A stretch of 64,000 nt of DNA from Escherichia phage vB_EcoM_SA35RD, in sequence record OL960577.1; one strand, written 5' to 3'. Below are positions 33,547 to 41,202 of this stretch, piece by piece. How positions within the stretch are numbered: the stretch's first letter is position 1; each line of letters opens with the position of its first letter. A program made the translations under genes and the position numbers. The notes under the pieces were generated by a model. That model ran no database searches. It was not told where the DNA came from and worked only from the letters and a program-made list of their open reading frames with translations.

Positions 33547-34035
33547 TCATATATACGCTTTCCAAGTTCCTGTTTTAAATGTTGAGATTACGCGTTTCGC
33601 GCGATTAGGTGTCTGACGATACCATTTAGATTGAGCTAGATTTACTGCCGCTTCATCCCAACGTTTCTGTTTAAGCATACGAAGAGAATTAGTAAAACCG
33701 GCGACTCCTGCTACACCCATTTGGAAGACCATATTGACCAATGCACACCGACGAACTGCATCTAAAGAATCATATACCGGTTTAAGTTTAGCATTACCCA
33801 AGATTCCGCGAACGGCTTTATCAACGTCTTCATTAAATAGCTTTTCAGCCTCATCAAGGGTAATTGTACCGTTGCATTTACGACCGATCATTCTGTCAAG
33901 TTCAGCTTTAGCTACGGCTAAAGACGGGTTCTTTGTTACCAAGTGGCCTATGCCAATCGTCCAAAAGCCTTCAGTGTCTTTGTATAAAGTCAGTCTAAGA
34001 CCTTCGTCATTACGAAGCATTTCAAATATATTCAT
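33547..34035 (-). CDS. e: lysozyme (endolysin) e
   Basis: [32 protein letters not shown] matches T4 lysozyme; catalytic Glu/Asp region present. Confidence 0.9.
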
Positions 34036-34069
34036 AATACCTCCCACGTTTATAGGAGATATTTATTAC

Positions 34070-34528
34070 TTATAGGATAGTAGTGAGCACCTTATATAAT
34101 GATTTGCCCATCACATATTCCCATTGAGAAGGTTTAATTAAAGCGAACGCATCAAATTCAGGAATCTGTCGTCCGTCTGGGAATGTATGATAGGAATTAC
34201 AAGCACTGTTTCTGAATTGCTCGTGCTCTACAGGGATGGTATATAGGAACAGATGAATATTCTTATTGTCTGAGTAATGATGTTCACCTAGGTCTTTCAG
34301 GAAGGCAGGGTCATATTGTGTAAACCCAGTTTCTTCTTCGCATTCGCGAATAGCGGCTTCAATAGGAGATTCACCGGGCTCGACACGTCCTTTAGGAATA
34401 TCCCAGCGATGAGCTAAAGAACCTTTAGGACGAGAACCAGTTACACGCCCCATGAATAATTCTTTATCTTCGGTAAGGAAAATAATACCGGCTGATAGTT
34501 CTTTCACTTTATTTTTCTTACTCATCAT
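34070..34528 (-). CDS. nudE: Nudix hydrolase
   Basis: Nudix box GRVEPGESPIEAAIRECEEETG. Confidence 0.8.
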   Translation of the reverse strand: MMSKKNKVKELSAGIIFLTEDKELFMGRVTGSRPKGSLAHRWDIPKGRVEPGESPIEAAIRECEEETGFTQYDPAFLKDLGEHHYSDNKNIHLFLYTIPVEHEQFRNSACNSYHTFPDGRQIPEFDAFALIKPSQWEYVMGKSLYKVLTTIL

Positions 34529-34769
34529 CTCGGTCCCATGATTTGGCCATTAATTCGGACATAAATTCTTCAATGCGCGTTTCTTTAGATGGACTTTCAC
34601 TATTAGAGACCGCAAGTTTGTAATCTGCAATAGGACAGAACATATCAAGATCCGTATTAAGGTCGTCTTTGATTTTTTCTTCTGACACATCTTTATCGTA
34701 TGTGTACAGATAACTATCACATGATTCTGATTTAATGTAAATTGCTATACTCATCTCAAATTCCTGCAT
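34518..34769 (-). CDS. hypothetical acidic protein (83 aa)
   Basis: Track ORF. Confidence 0.45.
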   Translation of the reverse strand: MQEFEMSIAIYIKSESCDSYLYTYDKDVSEEKIKDDLNTDLDMFCPIADYKLAVSNSESPSKETRIEEFMSELMAKSWDRDDE

Positions 34770-35242
34770 TCAGTAATAAAACATTCAACTTCGTTATTCT
34801 TGGCCTTTATCTTGTCTTTACGTTCCTGTAAACTACTTTTAACAAGATTAATAATGATGCCTACAGTACCTCCACCAATTATACCGCCAATTATACTTAC
34901 GATAGCAGATGCTAATAAGATAGCAATAATATCAACAAAACCGAAAGAACTCACCTTAGTACTAAAAAACCATACCGACGGTACAAATATAATCCATCCT
35001 GTTATCCATTGGCACTTATTGAAAAACTTTTCAAGATCAGCTTGAGTTGTTCGTATTACTTCATCGATAGGTTGATATCCATTAATGTATCTGTTCACGA
35101 TAATACCTGCTGGTTTGTCGATTTTAAATTCTTGGCAAATACGTTTCACTAAGTAGGATGGACATCCTGTCCAATCCACTGAATAGTACGAAATACCTTC
35201 ATTGCCGTCGTCAATATTAGACCAATATGTTTTGTTAATCAT
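34751..35242 (-). CDS. hypothetical membrane protein (163 aa), C-terminal ECFITECR tail
   Basis: Hydrophobic spans with GGIIGGG motif. Confidence 0.5.
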   Translation of the reverse strand: MINKTYWSNIDDGNEGISYYSVDWTGCPSYLVKRICQEFKIDKPAGIIVNRYINGYQPIDEVIRTTQADLEKFFNKCQWITGWIIFVPSVWFFSTKVSSFGFVDIIAILLASAIVSIIGGIIGGGTVGIIINLVKSSLQERKDKIKAKNNEVECFITECRNLR

Positions 35243-35928
35243 TACCAGCCTTCCATAGGGAATTCCAGATAAACTTGGGCATTGACGCGAATTTCATTGG
35301 TAATCTTTTTAACTCGGTCTGTATTACGAGATACACGTCCGAACCAACGCCATCCATTACTAATTGCACGAGAACCAGTGTGCCATGTTTGCCAATCAAA
35401 CTGAAGAAGAGTACGGTCTGGAGCTTCCCATTTCTCTAGTTCGCCTTTTTCGATTTTTTCGAGGACTTCTTTGTGCCACTGGCGATAGATAAGTTCGCCA
35501 TCAGGAATCTGACTGAACTCTGCAGTTCCTGTTGCAAAATGAGTAGGACACACATCAGCGTTAACAAGACCAAGAATATGTTCAGACAAATAGCGAGGAT
35601 TGTCATAGTCAGGTTGTCCTGCAGTAATAAAATGTTGACCAACCGGAATATCCGGGCGTGGTACGTCATCATGGTGATAACCTGGGATAGCAGGATACCA
35701 ACCAGGCATCAGCATGTGGACTCGTGAATCAAATACAACCTGGTCGGTGTTCCAATCATCTGGCAAGTTCATAATGAAAGAGCGAGTAATAGGACCGCCG
35801 TTATTATAAGCAAATTCTAAACTACAGTTGAAGAACATAGGCTCGTTCTTGATTTTATCATTAGAAATACCGCCGGCAAAACCACCTACTGCACGAGCTT
35901 GACTATTAAACACTTTAGAACTATTCAT
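35242..35928 (-). CDS. hypothetical protein (228 aa)
   Basis: Track ORF; Trp/His-rich. Confidence 0.5.
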   Translation of the reverse strand: MNSSKVFNSQARAVGGFAGGISNDKIKNEPMFFNCSLEFAYNNGGPITRSFIMNLPDDWNTDQVVFDSRVHMLMPGWYPAIPGYHHDDVPRPDIPVGQHFITAGQPDYDNPRYLSEHILGLVNADVCPTHFATGTAEFSQIPDGELIYRQWHKEVLEKIEKGELEKWEAPDRTLLQFDWQTWHTGSRAISNGWRWFGRVSRNTDRVKKITNEIRVNAQVYLEFPMEGW

Positions 35929-35929
35929 A

Positions 35930-36235
35930 TTATTTTCCTCGACATTCTTTAATGAAATTTTCTAGATTGGTAGATTCAATAGCTTTTTTACGAGCTTCTG
36001 CGTGTTCTTCTTCGGACAATTTACGTTTATAATTGACCCAGACATTATGGTCGAAACCAGTCGTGGCATATAATAACAATGCTCCAACGAATAGCAAAAA
36101 CGGCGATAAGAATACAAAACCAGGAACACCATCCATATCGTAAGCCTTTTGTAATACTGCAACAGAAAGAGTTGCGTAAAAAGGTGATGCAAGTATTGTT
36201 AAAAGACCAATTCGATTGGTTTCTGTTAATTTCAT
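35930..36235 (-). CDS. hypothetical membrane protein (101 aa), C-terminal ENFIKECR tail
   Basis: Two hydrophobic spans. Confidence 0.5.
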   Translation of the reverse strand: MKLTETNRIGLLTILASPFYATLSVAVLQKAYDMDGVPGFVFLSPFLLFVGALLLYATTGFDHNVWVNYKRKLSEEEHAEARKKAIESTNLENFIKECRGK

Positions 36236-36266
36236 AATATTCTCCTCATGTTTTAATAGGACTACT

Positions 36267-36296
36267 ACTATAACATAGTCCTATCAGTTTGTACAC
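36267..36296 (-). promoter_or_regulatory. early promoter cassette (-35 GTGTAC, -10 TATAGT) with TAGGACTA inverted repeat
   Basis: Read directly. Confidence 0.5.
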
Positions 36297-36497
36297 TTAT
36301 TTTGACATTTCTTCGATGTCACGACGATACCCATCACGAACTTCACGAAGAGCTTCAAGGCCACACATAGGCTCGATACCAGTAATGTGAACTTGATTAA
36401 TCTGATACTCTACATCTTCTAACTGAGCGAAAACATAACGACGTTCTGCTGCACAACCAGGTTTAGCTTTACCGAAACGTTTATTCAAAGTAGTCAT
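36297..36497 (-). CDS. hypothetical protein (about 66 aa)
   Basis: Track ORF 36297..36515 uses GTG; ATG at 36497 follows GGAGAT RBS. Confidence 0.45.
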   Translation of the reverse strand: MTTLNKRFGKAKPGCAAERRYVFAQLEDVEYQINQVHITGIEPMCGLEALREVRDGYRRDIEEMSK

Positions 36498-36535
36498 TTT
36501 TATATCTCCATTCACTCATTTGTTTTGATAGGTCT

Positions 36536-36565
36536 ATAGTATCAACAACTACAGACCTTGTAAAC
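36536..36565 (-). promoter_or_regulatory. early promoter cassette (-35 GTTTAC, -10 TACTAT)
   Basis: Read directly. Confidence 0.5.
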
Positions 36566-36577
36566 TGTTTTGTGAAA

Positions 36578-37534
36578 TTATTTGAAAGGTTTTACCATAT
36601 GAAAGTTTTGTTTGAAACGCTTGACGTAATCGTCGTGTCCTAAGCTTTGGTACATACTTACTACTTTGCTATAATTTTCCCAAGCGAACTCACGGAACCA
36701 TCCTGATGTGATTGATGTACAGACCTTTTCAAGGGCCATCATAAAACTATCACGTGGATGGATTTTAAAGTCGTTAGGAATCTGAGAACGTTCTAATGCT
36801 AGTACACATGATTCTTCATATACACCGGCCAATTTGACCATTTCTGGTAATGATTCGAACTTCTCGCGTGAGGTCATGACTTCAGAACCATCTTTCATGT
36901 AAAATGTATAAGCCGGACGGTCTGTTAGTGCAATAGCTTCGTGAATAGTATCATGGTCATATGTATAGATGTCATCTTTAAAGAACGCACTTTTAGAAGT
37001 GTCAAGAACAGGGTGAGCATAGTTCAAGGTTTCTTTCTGGCGTTTCAGCATAATTTCAGTAAGTTCATCGTTCAGTTTAACACCTTTACCACGAAGATAC
37101 TGAATATGGTTCATAGTCTTTAAAAAGAATGGATTATTTTTCTTGAAACGATGAGACATCTTAATTGCAAGACATATCTCAGGAGTTGCCCAGTAAAACC
37201 CGTTCAAACGGTCTTTAGTCAAATTTTTCTTGGCGTATTTTAAAAGGTCATAAGAAGACGTGAAATCTTCAGGAGTGAGTTCACCGACTAATTCACGGAC
37301 ACTAGTGATTGCCGGAACAATATATGCTTCAAAATGAGTTTCGCGTCCATTATGGAAGCATTTGAAAACTTGGACATCAGGGTTATCTTGGTGAACATAT
37401 ACACCCATCATTTGATTTTTGAATGCATTCCAAGAACCTTGGTCCGCAATAAAGTCCCAATCACTATTTTTAATAGCGCTAGAATCAATAAGACCGTGAT
37501 AGTGAAGTGCACGAGAACCAATAACTAACATCAT
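36578..37534 (-). CDS. hypothetical protein (318 aa), possible nucleotidyltransferase-like N-terminus
   Basis: VIGSRALHYHGLIDSSAIKNSDWDF loosely fits GS...D-x-D; weak. Confidence 0.45.
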   Translation of the reverse strand: MMLVIGSRALHYHGLIDSSAIKNSDWDFIADQGSWNAFKNQMMGVYVHQDNPDVQVFKCFHNGRETHFEAYIVPAITSVRELVGELTPEDFTSSYDLLKYAKKNLTKDRLNGFYWATPEICLAIKMSHRFKKNNPFFLKTMNHIQYLRGKGVKLNDELTEIMLKRQKETLNYAHPVLDTSKSAFFKDDIYTYDHDTIHEAIALTDRPAYTFYMKDGSEVMTSREKFESLPEMVKLAGVYEESCVLALERSQIPNDFKIHPRDSFMMALEKVCTSITSGWFREFAWENYSKVVSMYQSLGHDDYVKRFKQNFHMVKPFK

Positions 37535-37562
37535 AATATTTTCCTCGGATTAATTCATTAAC

Positions 37563-37814
37563 TTAAATTTCACGACATGCGATATTATATTCATCCCAGA
37601 GGTCATCATGTGAAGCCTCTACCAATGGAACGATTGTACCGTTTATGTCTTCATTATAAGGGCAAATTGTACAGTGCGCATCTTCGAATCGGATGCCTTT
37701 GTGTTCAGATTTTTTATAACGCATATCGAATATCTTTGCAAACTTTTCACGAGTAATGGTTTTACCAACCACTTTGGTTCCGATACTTTCGTAATAAATC
37801 ATTGTGGACTCCAT
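37563..37814 (-). CDS. hypothetical Cys/His-containing protein (about 80 aa)
   Basis: HCTICPYNED motif; start 37814 or 37802. Confidence 0.45.
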   Translation of the reverse strand: MESTMIYYESIGTKVVGKTITREKFAKIFDMRYKKSEHKGIRFEDAHCTICPYNEDINGTIVPLVEASHDDLWDEYNIACREI

Positions 37815-37830
37815 TTGTTTTGATAGGACT

Positions 37831-37860
37831 ACTATAACATAGCCCTATCTTGTTGTAAAC
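37831..37860 (-). promoter_or_regulatory. early promoter cassette (-35 GTTTAC, -10 TATAGT)
   Basis: Read directly. Confidence 0.5.
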
Positions 37861-37864
37861 TGTT

Positions 37865-38062
37865 TTAGCAAGAATAACTAGATGATACCCAGCCTTGAAC
37901 AGTGATACTATTGTGGGATAATGAGATCGCGTCCTGGAGATTCAGACCTGCGTTATCTTCAATCCATAATGTAACTTCTTCGCGTTCTTCTGTTGCAATT
38001 TGGAACAGGTTTTCCAGAGCAGCTACTGCCGTACGTACAGCACAATCTAATTCACGAGACAT
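37865..38062 (-). CDS. hypothetical protein (65 aa), GWVSSSxxC-tail family
   Basis: Ends QGWVSSSYSC. Confidence 0.45.
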   Translation of the reverse strand: MSRELDCAVRTAVAALENLFQIATEEREEVTLWIEDNAGLNLQDAISLSHNSITVQGWVSSSYSC

Positions 38063-38071
38063 ATTGTTTCC

Positions 38072-38344
38072 TTAGCAAGTGTGAGAAGATGCGACCCAAC
38101 CACCAGTTTCGAGGCTCAGGTTGTAGTCGTATTGGTAAACGTCAGCCCATTCAGCATAGCCATTTTTTGTACAACGTTCAAGATCGGCTTTAAGATGTCC
38201 GGGTGAATGATAGGTTCCACCCATACCGTAAGCTGGATACAAGTCGAATGTTGTGTTTTGTTTATCAGCAATTTCTTTGGCAGCCTCAATAGCTGCATAG
38301 ATTTTTGCTACAGCTTCAGCCAGTTCGGTTTGTTCTTTAGACAT
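38072..38344 (-). CDS. hypothetical protein (90 aa), GWVSSSxxC-tail family
   Basis: Ends GGWVASSHTC. Confidence 0.45.
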   Translation of the reverse strand: MSKEQTELAEAVAKIYAAIEAAKEIADKQNTTFDLYPAYGMGGTYHSPGHLKADLERCTKNGYAEWADVYQYDYNLSLETGGWVASSHTC

Positions 38345-38353
38345 AATGATTCC

Positions 38354-38659
38354 TTAGCACAACGCAGAAGACGAAACCCAAGCACCTTCAGTAATAACGT
38401 AACCATTACCTTCACGCTTAACATCGCCACCATTATTTTCAATTTCATCTTTCATCCACTGGGATACGATTTCACCCTTAGGATAATAAGTACGACCGCT
38501 ACCATAATCACCTACAGAAAATGATACGGCATATTGGTCTGCGATCTTTGTTGCTTCTTCTTCGATACGTTCAGCTTGATTCAGAAGTTTATAAATTGCA
38601 TCTGAAGCGGATTTGGCATTATTAAACTCTGGTACTTTAATTTCAATAATCTTACTCAT
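38354..38659 (-). CDS. hypothetical protein (101 aa), GWVSSSxxC-tail family
   Basis: Ends EGAWVSSSALC. Confidence 0.45.
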   Translation of the reverse strand: MSKIIEIKVPEFNNAKSASDAIYKLLNQAERIEEEATKIADQYAVSFSVGDYGSGRTYYPKGEIVSQWMKDEIENNGGDVKREGNGYVITEGAWVSSSALC

Positions 38660-39015
38660 TTTCTACATTCCTTAATAAAGTTTTCGATTGTTTCATTTTC
38701 ACGTCTAGCTAGGAGTTCATTATAACTAATCATTTGAGAAGCGTAAACCTTTTTATTTTTCTTGTTATGGTTTATAAAATCGTAGTAAAAATAGACTACA
38801 GTACAAAATGATGCGATGGATGCAAAGGCTTGGGTATACCGTAAGTCCTGCCATTGGTCTGTGAATCCACCAGTGTTCCCTATAAATCCTAACACAACGC
38901 CGTCAATAAGAAATCCAACTAATCCAAAGGCAAATCCCATGCCAATACTCATAATAAAAATTAGAATGTTCTCACCAAGAGAAGGCCATACGGTTAAGAG
39001 TTGAGGCTTTTGCAT
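38656..39015 (-). CDS. hypothetical membrane protein (119 aa), C-terminal ENFIKECRK tail
   Basis: Two or three hydrophobic spans. Confidence 0.5.
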   Translation of the reverse strand: MQKPQLLTVWPSLGENILIFIMSIGMGFAFGLVGFLIDGVVLGFIGNTGGFTDQWQDLRYTQAFASIASFCTVVYFYYDFINHNKKNKKVYASQMISYNELLARRENETIENFIKECRK

Positions 39016-39419
39016 CTTATTTCCTTAACGAATTCCATAGCTTCTTCATATTCATACTTTTTAATAGCTTCATCATACTGAGCTTGGGCTTTTGCGCACT
39101 GAACTTTCCATTCTCTTAATCGGGCTCTGTGATGACGGCCTTGGTGCCAATATCCCACCCAATTAATAGGCATTAATAAAAACGGTACAATAAGTGGTGC
39201 GACGAACATTAATGAAAATGCTGCATCAGACGATATAACTTCACTAGAATCTAAAACAGCTCCTATAATCATAAAGATTAAAAATGCTAAAGCTAAAATA
39301 GGGCCAAATAGTACTTCATTTGGGATTAATTTACGCTTGTATTCATACGCCCAGGGCTTACTTGGCATGTATAGGGTTGGCTTTGACATATTCTCTACAT
39401 TCCATAATAAATTGCTCAA
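38994..39419 (-). CDS. hypothetical membrane protein (about 131-141 aa), C-terminal EFVKEIRCK tail
   Basis: Hydrophobic spans; start ambiguous (39419 or 39389). Confidence 0.45.
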   Translation of the reverse strand: MSNLLWNVENMSKPTLYMPSKPWAYEYKRKLIPNEVLFGPILALAFLIFMIIGAVLDSSEVISSDAAFSLMFVAPLIVPFLLMPINWVGYWHQGRHHRARLREWKVQCAKAQAQYDEAIKKYEYEEAMEFVKEIRCKSLNS

Positions 39420-39975
39420 GGATTAAATTGTTAGTGAAATTAGGACTAACAACCATAGTTTCATAAAGCGCATCAATAGCACTTAAAGCATCAACTCTTT
39501 TAAGCAAAGGCTTGCCTTCATACATAGTTTCAGAATCGACGATTAAAGTGAAGTAGTATTTTTTATTATTGGCCAGAACTTCTGTATCAATATAAAACAT
39601 GTTAGACCTTAAAAGCTTGTCTCTAAAGCCTACGTAATCATCTGAACGTTCACTGATATATTCCCATTCGGTGTTTAAACAACAAACAGACCACGTAGGA
39701 GCAACGAAATCAGTGAATCTAATATCATGGTCTGCAACTAGTTTAGCAATAGCTCCGATATCATGAATCATAATACCTGGGGCTAATAAAGATTTTCGGT
39801 TATTTGCATATTCAGTTGTCTCATAAGAAGACGACCAGTACCATTTACGTCCAGTTGCAACATATCGTAATGAATCAACTAAAGACGTAGGTGGATTTAC
39901 CTTATCTCGGAACTCTTCGAACATTGAGTCAATATCATTATTTTGGTTTCGCATGTTAACTCCTTTATTATCCAA
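39358..39975 (-). CDS. hypothetical protein (205 aa), C-terminal EQFIMECR motif
   Basis: Track ORF. Confidence 0.5.
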   Translation of the reverse strand: MDNKGVNMRNQNNDIDSMFEEFRDKVNPPTSLVDSLRYVATGRKWYWSSSYETTEYANNRKSLLAPGIMIHDIGAIAKLVADHDIRFTDFVAPTWSVCCLNTEWEYISERSDDYVGFRDKLLRSNMFYIDTEVLANNKKYYFTLIVDSETMYEGKPLLKRVDALSAIDALYETMVVSPNFTNNLILEQFIMECREYVKANPIHAK

Positions 39976-39996
39976 AAGGAGGACCGGGGTCCTCCG
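39973..39996 (-). terminator. terminator hairpin GGAGGACC-gg-GGTCCTCC
   Basis: Perfect 8-bp stem; T-run follows on minus strand. Confidence 0.5.
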
Positions 39997-40003
39997 TATT
40001 ATT

Positions 40004-40597
40004 TTATTTCAAAGAGTTAATATATTCTTGTACATCAGCAGAAGTGGTTTCGACACCTGCTGGAGTGCCATTGAACGTTTCAACCCGAGTCAGAGTGTCT
40101 TCGATATCAACCTTAGTCAGTGCAGCGATTTCAATTACATCATCGGCCGTAGAGATACCAAGGGCATTAGCTGCTCGAGTTTCACGAATGTATTCGAGTT
40201 TGATTGCCAGATTCTGACGAGCATCATCAAGTTCAACCACCTTACGAGCAATTTCAATTCGCATAGCGGCATACCCGTCAGCTTTTGTATTAAGTTGTTC
40301 GGCAGTTCGACGATACAGAAGACCAAGCTTAGCATGCATGGTAACATCTTGTCCTTCAGCCAGGAGCTTACGAATTTCACGTTCCTTAGAAGCGGCTTGC
40401 TTGTTCTTTTCAATAACAAGTTCGCGAATACGTTTTTCTTCATTAATAGATTTAACAGAAGCCGTTTTTAGTTCTTTGATTTGGGTAATCAACTTATCTG
40501 CAGCTGCGTTATACTGTTCTTCGACAGTCAGATTTTTAGCCATAGCAGTACCCAGTTTAGTGCGAATGAATTCAACAAGTTTCTTCAGTGTGTTCAT
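40004..40597 (-). CDS. hypothetical coiled-coil protein (about 197 aa)
   Basis: Track ORF 40004..40612 uses TTG; ATG at 40597 follows AGGT RBS; architecture vaguely PspA-like. Confidence 0.5.
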
Positions 40598-40639
40598 ATT
40601 ATTACCTTTCAATTGGTGGTTTATTATCCAACGAGAGCA

Positions 40640-40668
40640 TTATACTCTGCTCTCAAGAGTTTGTACAC
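40640..40668 (-). promoter_or_regulatory. early promoter cassette (-35 TGTACA, 17 nt, -10 TATAAT) with GAGAGC/GCTCTC inverted repeat
   Basis: Near-duplicate of 10055..10083 with compensatory A:T to C:G change. Confidence 0.5.
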
Positions 40669-40919
40669 TTATTTGTACGAATTAATAATCTCTTCCATTT
40701 TATCCAGAACATGGATATCGATTATACGAGGAAGTGCCGAAAGATTAGAACCGTCGAAAGATTTAAGGTCTTCCAAAATAATATTTTCAATGGCCTTTAA
40801 AGCTTCCGCAGATTCTGATGCAGAATTAAATTCAGGAATTTCTCCAAAAAGACGTAAGAATGAACCAAAGTATTCTGCGGCGATTTCTTTAGCTTGTTCG
40901 ATATCAGACTTAAACATTT
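40669..40919 (-). CDS. hypothetical acidic protein (about 83 aa)
   Basis: Track ORF 40669..40950; start set to MFKSD after GAGGAAA RBS. Confidence 0.45.
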
Positions 40920-40945
40920 TGTTTTCCTCATTTGTTGGTGGAGTA

Positions 40946-40974
40946 ATCATATCACCATCCTTGGCGTTTGTACA
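40946..40974 (-). promoter_or_regulatory. early promoter cassette (-35 TGTACA, 17 nt, -10 TATGAT) with CACCA-agga-TGG hairpin
   Basis: Read directly. Confidence 0.45.
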
Positions 40975-41202
40975 TTATTTTTTAATCAAGTTGACATAAA
41001 ATTCTGCATCTTCAGGGTGCATGCCTTCGCAGTATTCTTCAACCATGAACTTCTTAACAGCTTCATAAGGACCACTCAGATTAAGCTCAGTTGTCCAGAA
41101 CTTGGAATCTTGGACTGAATCGATATGAACTTCAGGGTGTCGGTTGCGAATAACTTCTTCGGTGTATTCATAATCAACGACATCAATACTAACTTTAGCC
41201 AT
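40975..41202 (-). CDS. hypothetical protein (75 aa)
   Basis: Track ORF. Confidence 0.45.
   Translation of the reverse strand: MAKVSIDVVDYEYTEEVIRNRHPEVHIDSVQDSKFWTTELNLSGPYEAVKKFMVEEYCEGMHPEDAEFYVNLIKK

Follow-up and report, generated by a model that had tools for sequence, protein, structure and literature searches.

Why do five nearby phage proteins carry nearly the same short peptide at or close to their C-termini, and is it the peptide or the DNA encoding it that is being kept? This question is raised by a 64,000-nucleotide (nt) stretch of Escherichia phage vB_EcoM_SA35RD (record OL960577.1), hereafter called the window, in which five open reading frames (ORFs) share a tail of the type ENFIKECR: an e.2-like gene, a gene for a 101-amino-acid (aa) membrane protein (ORF101), and homologues of T4 e.3, e.4 and e.5. 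The closest relatives of the region are Mosigvirus (RB69-like, T4-type) phages such as APCEc01 and ATK47 (~97% identity), and the homologues of e (lysozyme), nudE, e.3, e.4, e.5 and e.6 were named from the annotations of close relatives and T4. The minus strand carries every gene of 34-41 kb. A first-pass annotation of the window had described the tail and its coding DNA as one conserved element at gene junctions, and had proposed a protein-level signal, a translational-coupling or repressor site, or a recombination linker.

We found that the shared tail is not a chance occurrence. In a six-frame scan of the 64-kb window, the pattern F[IV].E[CI]R matched exactly five times, in each case within one of the five ORFs and no more than 11 residues from a stop codon, whereas residue shuffles (1000 trials) gave 0.20 matches on average, at most three and never five. 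All five ORFs were thus confirmed, on the minus strand, and the junction DNA quoted in the first-pass annotation, GAAAACTTTATTAAGGAATGTAGAAAATGA, was located as the reverse complement of 38656-38685. The hydropathy profiles, with one or two strongly hydrophobic segments in the e.2-like protein, ORF101, e.3 and e.4 and none in e.5 or e.6, bore out the description of four of the five as membrane proteins. Two details required revision. The tails are indeed shared by all five proteins, but they are neither near-identical nor terminal throughout: 11 residues follow the motif in e.5, and in e.4 the tail reads FVKEIRCK, a variant in which Ile takes the place of Cys. Likewise, all five reading frames exist, but the upstream ends assigned to e.4 and e.5 had been placed at the first TTG in each open frame. 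Judging from the sequence, the true start of e.4 is likely to be ATG 39389 (MSKPT..., matching the T4 e.4 annotation), and that of e.5 is likely to be ATG 39954 (MRNQ..., with AAGGAG in front). The annotated start of e.4 varies between phages: ATK47 and phage 55 take the downstream ATG 39368 (MPSKPW..., no Shine-Dalgarno (SD) sequence), and the T4-type upstream ATG (39389; MSKP...) lies 10 nt past the e.5 Cys codon, with a purine-rich stretch before it.

The proteins that carry the tail (hereafter carriers) have little else in common. A Pfam scan of the five window proteins returned no families (PF26876 is precomputed for e.5 relatives in a protein database, and the scan of the window e.5 gave 0 families), and the PHROGs entries list the membrane carriers as function unknown or just as 'membrane protein'. 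Pairwise BLASTP among the five aligned only the 9-15-residue tails. Plain paralogy was rejected on this result, with one exception, a weak similarity over a transmembrane segment plus tail between ORF101 and the e.2-like protein; ORF101 was found in Mosigvirus only and weakly matches the C-terminal half of phrog_2203, the family of the e.2-like protein.

The nucleotides behave differently from the peptide. Pairwise identity among the five coding segments was 10-20 of 24 nt, with a longest exact common run of 10 nt, so that the conserved DNA element of roughly 25 nt in the first-pass annotation did not hold up; aligning the junctions and the tails, the check it had recommended, showed the peptide to be conserved and the nucleotides not. 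ORF101 and e.3 encode the same peptide, ENFIKECR, with four synonymous codon differences. Among 93 distinct coding versions, the codons for Phe (TTT 58, TTC 31) and Cys (TGT 48, TGC 45) were used at close to background frequencies, and all six Arg codons occurred at the Arg of the motif. The tail or a variant of it is retained in T4 e.2, e.3, e.4 and e.5 and in the representatives of the e.2 family: T4 e.3 ends in EFVIDCRKIK-stop and T4 e.4 in KFVKESRCKSQS-stop, T4 e.5 carries EKFVKECREY..., and every cluster representative of the e.2 family has [FW]-I-x-x-C-R-(K) at its end, at no more than 27-36% identity to the window protein. When 12 sequences of the e.2 family were aligned, C and R were the sole invariant columns beyond the N-terminal domain, and proteins at the e.5 position are often unalignable across genera except for the tail. 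In addition, the tail is kept when the downstream gene differs, being followed by a 78-aa ORF, nudE, a 106-aa ORF or another tail protein. Since synonymous sites vary freely and the tail survives in bodies that have diverged, these alignments show that purifying selection acts on the peptide rather than on the nucleotides. Among the functions first proposed, the protein-level signal is the one that these results favor.

To describe the motif in full, we aligned 101 distinct tails on Cys-Arg, drawn from the window, T4, nine further annotated phages and 36 IMG/VR loci. This diversity was gathered by tblastn anchors, locus retrieval and a scan of IMG/VR with an e.6 profile; a locus search with e.3 and word-indexed protein searches with e.3 and e.5 returned near-identical relatives only. 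The full motif reads hydrophobic(-8)-[E/N/D]-x-Phe(-5)-[Ile/Val](-4)-x-x-Cys(-1)-[Arg/Lys](0). With F, I/V, C and R/K fixed by the search pattern, hydrophobic residues occupied -5, -4 and -1 in 100% of the tails, and R or K was always at position 0. The -8 position, which lay outside the search pattern, was hydrophobic (L, I, V, F or M) in 92%, vs ~15-30% at its neighbors, and -7 and -6 were frequently acidic or Asn. The distance from motif to stop ranged from 0 to 16 residues. The spacing of the hydrophobic residues at -8, -5, -4 and -1 is that of one face of a heptad-patterned amphipathic alpha-helix, as predicted from the aligned residues. Variants of the e.4 type have Ile, Met, Val or Ser at -1 (FVMEMRK-stop, FLKEIRK-stop and FIKNVRRK-stop in relatives), and variant tails in Muldoonvirus read IIHQAR and AIHEAR.

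The motif spans at least ten genera of T4-type phages. It was found in the syntenic block of Mosigvirus, Tequatrovirus, Dhakavirus, Kanagawavirus (two phages), Moonvirus and a Klebsiella phage, and also in that of Biquartavirus, Pseudotevenvirus and Tegunavirus; carriers beyond those of the window include soluble proteins of 95-109 aa and a 66-aa protein. Throughout the T4 genome, the strict motif near a stop codon is limited to e.5, e.3 and the reading frame of e.2, in addition to the e.4 variant, and thymidine kinase has a weak, chance-like match. A six-frame test on T4 alone is weak (3 matches vs 0.75 expected) because of noise from the non-coding frames, and a comparison of the two flanks of e.6 is the stronger control.

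For this control, we used those 35 of the 37 IMG/VR loci found with the e.6 profile that had full 4-kb flanks, and ORFs of at least 45 aa on the same strand were scored for the strict motif. The motif ended 97 of the 491 ORFs in the 4 kb downstream of e.6, vs 1 of the 546 in the 4 kb upstream, and every locus contained one to five carriers. Moreover, the gene directly downstream of e.6 carries the motif in every genus examined, and among the IMG/VR loci found with the e.6 profile the next ORF carried it in 35 of 37. In the loci compared, the motif is thus shown to be confined to the block just downstream of e.6. The e.6 protein itself remains 35-88% identical across phages whose neighboring carriers are unrecognizable. 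A slowly evolving hub whose partners evolve rapidly except in the docking peptide would give such a pattern.

We therefore considered e.6 as a candidate partner of the tails. An AlphaFold2 (AF2) model built from a 24-sequence alignment (predicted local distance difference test (pLDDT) score, 78) has an N-terminal helix, a helical hairpin of ~55+60 residues and two short C-terminal helices. With this model, the top eight PDB hits in Foldseek were Vipp1, with PspA and archaeal CdvB2 lower in the ranking, and the e.6 profile gave weak but colinear matches to Vipp1 residues 5-141. The Pfam PspA_IM30 model did not match e.6. The assignment of e.6 to the PspA/Vipp1 group is possibly correct and is treated here as a lead from modeling, not as a result. 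The C-terminus of e.6 also has V, Y, I, L and K at -8, -5, -4, -1 and 0, which are conserved across the e.6 family and fit the heptad pattern of the tails, a resemblance that was noticed post hoc. When the five-position pattern was loosened and anchored at the C-terminus, only e.3, e.6 and rIII matched in all of T4. Of these three, rIII (T4 130785-131033; ...AVRHFVVTLK-stop) is the only one encoded away from the e cluster, and its match may be chance. Residues 62-75 of the e.2-like protein (35017-35058, minus strand) contain an internal TTQADLEKFFNKCQ, which looks like both the e.6 C-terminus and the tail pattern; this resemblance is probably coincidental because it is not kept in the wider e.2 family.

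These observations suggest the following mechanism. The carriers are fast-evolving early proteins of the block downstream of e.6, most of them small inner-membrane proteins and some soluble, and the positive-inside rule predicts that the tails of the membrane carriers face the cytoplasm. The helix would serve as a docking motif through which all carriers bind one common partner, which we consider probable. The partner may be e.6, whose own C-terminal helix has the same pattern, an identification that we put forward tentatively and regard as possible rather than likely; e.6 may in turn be PspA/Vipp1 (ESCRT-III)-like. The membrane carriers might then tether e.6 to the inner membrane or control it there, by analogy with PspB/PspC (or LiaI) and their partner PspA (or LiaH). 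The DNA similarity between tails occasionally serves as microhomology for the precise in-frame loss of a cassette. On balance, we slightly favor a C-terminal helix that acts at the protein level in shared docking. Several points weigh against it. The partner is inferred solely from synteny and the post-hoc resemblance of the patterns, and a hairpin resembling a terminator stands between e.6 and e.5. For e.5, the AF2 model (4-sequence alignment, pLDDT 38) does not tell whether the helix of the motif is accessible or buried. The near-invariant Cys goes beyond simple hydrophobic docking and may instead indicate redox, metal or covalent chemistry, and the e.4-type tails do without this Cys.

The Cys is also the starting point of an alternative in which the tail has a role intrinsic to the carriers, without docking to e.6. 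The tails might self-associate in a hetero-oligomeric membrane complex, perhaps around a shared metal or a disulfide/redox center formed through the Cys, or might bind a host protein. The near-invariant Cys beside Arg exceeds what a hydrophobic face needs, the one to five carriers of a genome are encoded together, and the hosts are all Enterobacterales or Aeromonas, so that a conserved host target is conceivable. However, such a role explains neither why the carriers lie strictly next to e.6 nor why the e.6 C-terminus matches the pattern, and the replacement of Cys by Ile, Met, Val or Ser in e.4-type tails and by Ala in Muldoonvirus argues against obligatory Cys chemistry. We regard this alternative as rather doubtful.

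Two further explanations place the function in the nucleic acid. As the first-pass annotation had noted, the tails overlie the SD and start codon of the next gene, and we confirmed this overlap at the junctions, many of which are ATGA overlaps. In the window, the end of e.5 overlaps the start of e.4 by ~30 nt, and the signals of e.3 lie inside the e.4 tail, with the SD supplied by the K-E codons and the ATG contained in the R-C codons. Of 26 annotated downstream starts, 20 lay 7-28 nt from the Cys codon. Where the next start lies 7-10 nt past the Cys codon, the variable x-x codons (AAG-GAA, GAG-GAA, AAA-GGR or ATG-GAA) contained GGA/GGG in 8 of 9 cases vs 1 of 17 otherwise (Fisher p ~5e-5). 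At 13-16 nt, the SD is made from the Arg codon and the following residue (CGA-GGA, AGG-AAT, AGA-AGG), and this use of the Arg codon accounts for the enrichment of AGR in the motif (49% of Arg codons vs 21% in the background). Together with the presence of regA in the window, these features could be taken to mean that an RNA element, such as a translation-initiation, coupling or repressor site (for instance for RegA), is what is conserved and that the peptide is a mere by-product. We consider this highly improbable. Every synonymous codon is in use for the -8 hydrophobic residue, Phe, Ile/Val, Cys and Arg. The next start lies anywhere from -1 to 73 nt from the Cys codon, whereas a RegA translational operator would be expected to cover the start codon at a constant position, and the motif is retained even before genes that begin 47-55 nt past the stop and have an SD of their own. 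In e.5-type proteins, the reading frame runs on for another 5-16 codons after the motif, an Rfam scan of 34000-41000 gave no match, and SDs embedded in coding sequence are generic in these compact genomes while T4 lacks the motif outside this block. The translational-coupling or RegA site thus found no support as the cause of conservation. The nucleotide patterns show instead that the element is dual-coding, with the invariant part specifying the peptide and the ribosome-binding site (RBS) using the freedom that remains in the two variable residues and the choice of Arg codon.

The other explanation holds that the tails are recombination linkers, short boundary repeats kept for the in-frame swap or loss of cassettes. 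One clear case was found. Tequatrovirus G4498 lacks e.2, and its e.3 tail (...EFVSDCRKLK-stop) is joined directly to nudE; the crossover, from T4 e.3-tail DNA to e.2-tail/nudE DNA, lies within TGCAGGAAA, which is common to the T4 e.3 and e.2 tails. By sequence comparison, this is a precise in-frame deletion of a cassette between two tails, and the T4_ev240 and LYE-01 records have the same 43-nt-only match. The retention of the tail whichever gene comes next also fits a linker. By contrast, the exact DNA matches between tails within one genome are short (10 nt or less in the window), the synonymous divergence indicates that DNA identity is not maintained, and a linker has no need for invariant Phe, Cys and Arg or for a heptad pattern. 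Other indels fall elsewhere: in Mosigvirus phi25-307 (equivalent of 34518-35928), the 78-aa gene was lost via GAGATGA microhomology at gene junctions, and the 228-aa gene was lost through endpoints outside the tails, together with the first ~10 codons of the e.2-like gene (an N-terminal truncation). The linker proposal therefore survives in the G4498 e.2 loss and not as a general account. Compared with known boundary or linker sequences for modular exchange, an endpoint within the repeat was seen in this one case, and the DNA is not conserved. Promoter-early stem-loops (PeSLs), the mobile regulatory cassettes of hyperplastic regions in T4-type phages (PMC2839356, PMC4122927), offer another comparison, since they too are recurrent short boundary sequences in variable regions, and recombination between their copies removes or swaps ORFs, as in G4498. 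PeSLs are, however, intergenic, consist of a hairpin plus a promoter and are conserved as DNA, whereas the tails are coding and conserved as peptide; no hairpin or promoter-like site coincided with the tails in the window. We consider it quite unlikely that the tails are kept as linkers, and their part in recombination looks like a by-product.

The reference T4 record bears on this part of the locus as well. At T4 67472-67960, the e.2 gene as annotated (102 aa) is broken by one or two indels of a single base each. The gene is intact in Tequatrovirus slur04, where it encodes 162 aa ending in NSFITECRKLK-stop, and of the two indels in the reference record one is missing from a re-sequenced T4 (MT984581). 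With slur04 intact and T4 departing from it by so little, the break is either recent or confined to a strain or record, and the idea that the T4 tail was kept after pseudogenization was rejected. For annotation, this means that the deposited 102-aa e.2 is a frameshifted version of a 162-aa, tail-bearing gene.

Returning to the docking helix, three known systems invite comparison. MIM1 (MIT-interacting motif), at the C-terminus of ESCRT-III subunits, has the consensus (D/E)xxLxxRLxxL(K/R). Like the phage motif, it is a short amphipathic helix at the extreme C-terminus, with hydrophobic residues at i, i+3/4 and i+7 and a basic end, and the phage motif is linked genetically to e.6, whose best Foldseek matches are to Vipp1/PspA of the ESCRT-III superfamily. 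The phage carriers, however, are not ESCRT-III subunits but, in the window, four membrane proteins and the unrelated soluble e.5, and the key residues of the tails are Phe and Cys where MIM1 has Leu. The PspA system with PspB/PspC, and LiaH with LiaI, resemble the locus in that a soluble long-hairpin protein is encoded beside small inner-membrane proteins; by analogy, the cytoplasmic C-terminal helices of the phage membrane proteins could recruit the hairpin protein. They differ in that the phage membrane proteins show no PspB/PspC homology (no Pfam hits), that e.6 is not recognized by PspA_IM30, and that several interchangeable, unrelated carriers share one motif. Within T4 itself, gp43, gp33 and gp55 have C-terminal clamp-binding tails that bind gp45. 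Here again unrelated proteins of the same phage place a short, related end peptide onto one hub, but the sequences and the carriers are different (mostly membrane proteins, function unknown), and the hub proposed here is putative. The principle of a shared terminal peptide on one hub is thus already well known. A literature search of partial coverage on the peptide strings, on T4 e.3, e.5 and e.6 and on phage PspA/Vipp1 found no description of this motif or of a PspA-like e.6, so that the motif is apparently undescribed.

The e.2-e.6 genes lack an assigned function in spite of the intensive study of T4, and the shared tail joins four to seven of them in each genome as one functional group. With three or four of its nine residues invariant, the peptide is a handle for finding the common partner. 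Furthermore, the same 25 nt hold three layers without nucleotide conservation, namely the peptide motif, the next RBS and recombination microhomology. In its most far-reaching form, which is speculative and in our estimate less likely still than e.6 being the partner, e.6 would be a phage ESCRT-III/PspA-like hub that remodels or protects membranes, rapidly diversifying adaptors, both inner-membrane and soluble, would plug into it via a MIM-like helix mimicking the e.6 C-terminus, and the tail would double as the joint at which adaptors are swapped. If e.6 is such a hub, the locus would encode a modular hub-and-adaptor system controlling the host inner membrane during infection, which raises its interest. 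The features of the locus are collected in Table 1.

Table 1 Features of the tail-bearing locus in the window (positions on the deposited strand)
Feature	Position	Strand	Remarks
e.2-like gene, 163 aa	34751..35242	minus	phrog_2203; N-terminal soluble domain, hydrophobic segments, predicted cytoplasmic tail ...NNEVECFITECRNLR-stop
e.2-like motif incl. -8 position	34763-34789	minus	
Start codon of 78-aa gene after e.2-like (ATGA overlap)	34752..34754	minus	SD AGGA in the C-R-N codons of the tail
ORF101, 101-aa membrane protein	35930..36235	minus	Two hydrophobic segments; tail ...TNLENFIKECRGK-stop
ORF101 motif	35939-35965	minus	
Start codon of conserved 228-aa gene after ORF101	35926..35928	minus	SD GAGGA from the R-G codons of the tail
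e.3 homologue, 119-aa membrane protein	38656..39015	minus	Tail ...ETIENFIKECRK-stop; stop overlaps next start (ATGA)
e.3 motif	38662-38688	minus	
Start codon of 101-aa WVSSSxxC-family gene after e.3	38657..38659	minus	SD AAGGA from K-E codons in the motif
e.4 homologue, 131-aa membrane protein, likely start ATG 39389	38994..39389	minus	Variant tail ...EAMEFVKEIRCKSLNS-stop, Ile at Cys position
e.4 motif	39015-39041	minus	
e.5 homologue, 198-aa soluble protein, likely start ATG 39954	39358..39954	minus	Motif ...LILEQFIMECREYVKANPIHAK-stop
e.5 motif	39394-39420	minus	
Terminator-like hairpin between e.6 and e.5	39978..39995	minus	GGAGGACCCCGGTCCTCC then TTTT; terminator in ATK47 annotation
e.6 homologue, 197 aa, long-helical-hairpin protein (modeled)	40004..40597	minus	Candidate common partner
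e.6 C-terminus fitting heptad pattern	40007-40033	minus	V-8, Y-5, I-4, L-1, K0

Three neighboring features were also observed. The 228-aa protein encoded beside ORF101 (35242-35928, minus strand) has no Pfam match, yet it is extremely conserved, with 78-83% identity in T4-type phages of Aeromonas, Klebsiella, Edwardsiella and Kosakonia and ~30% identity in phages of Mycobacterium, Gordonia and Bacillus; in the first three genera that were compared, its last 31 residues are identical. The gene lies in another neighborhood in Aeromonas phage 31, near rIIB and denB.

A second recurring C-terminal tail, W-[VI]-[SA]-S-S-x-x-C-stop, is found on three tandem small ORFs of the minus strand, at 37865-38062, 38072-38344 and 38354-38659, which end in GWVSSSYSC, GGWVASSHTC and GAWVSSSALC, respectively, each followed by the stop codon. 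TAAGGA follows the final Cys codon in these ORFs, so that the stop forms part of the next SD. The family with WVSSSxxC tails, phrog_899, occurs as three to five tandem copies in Dhakavirus, Kanagawavirus, Moonvirus, Tegunavirus and Muldoonvirus. Finally, three PeSL-like intergenic elements lie on the minus strand of the window, at ~36240-36295, ~36520-36575 and ~37815-37860, each combining a hairpin with a T4-early-type promoter (GTTTACA...17 nt...TATAGT/TACTAT).

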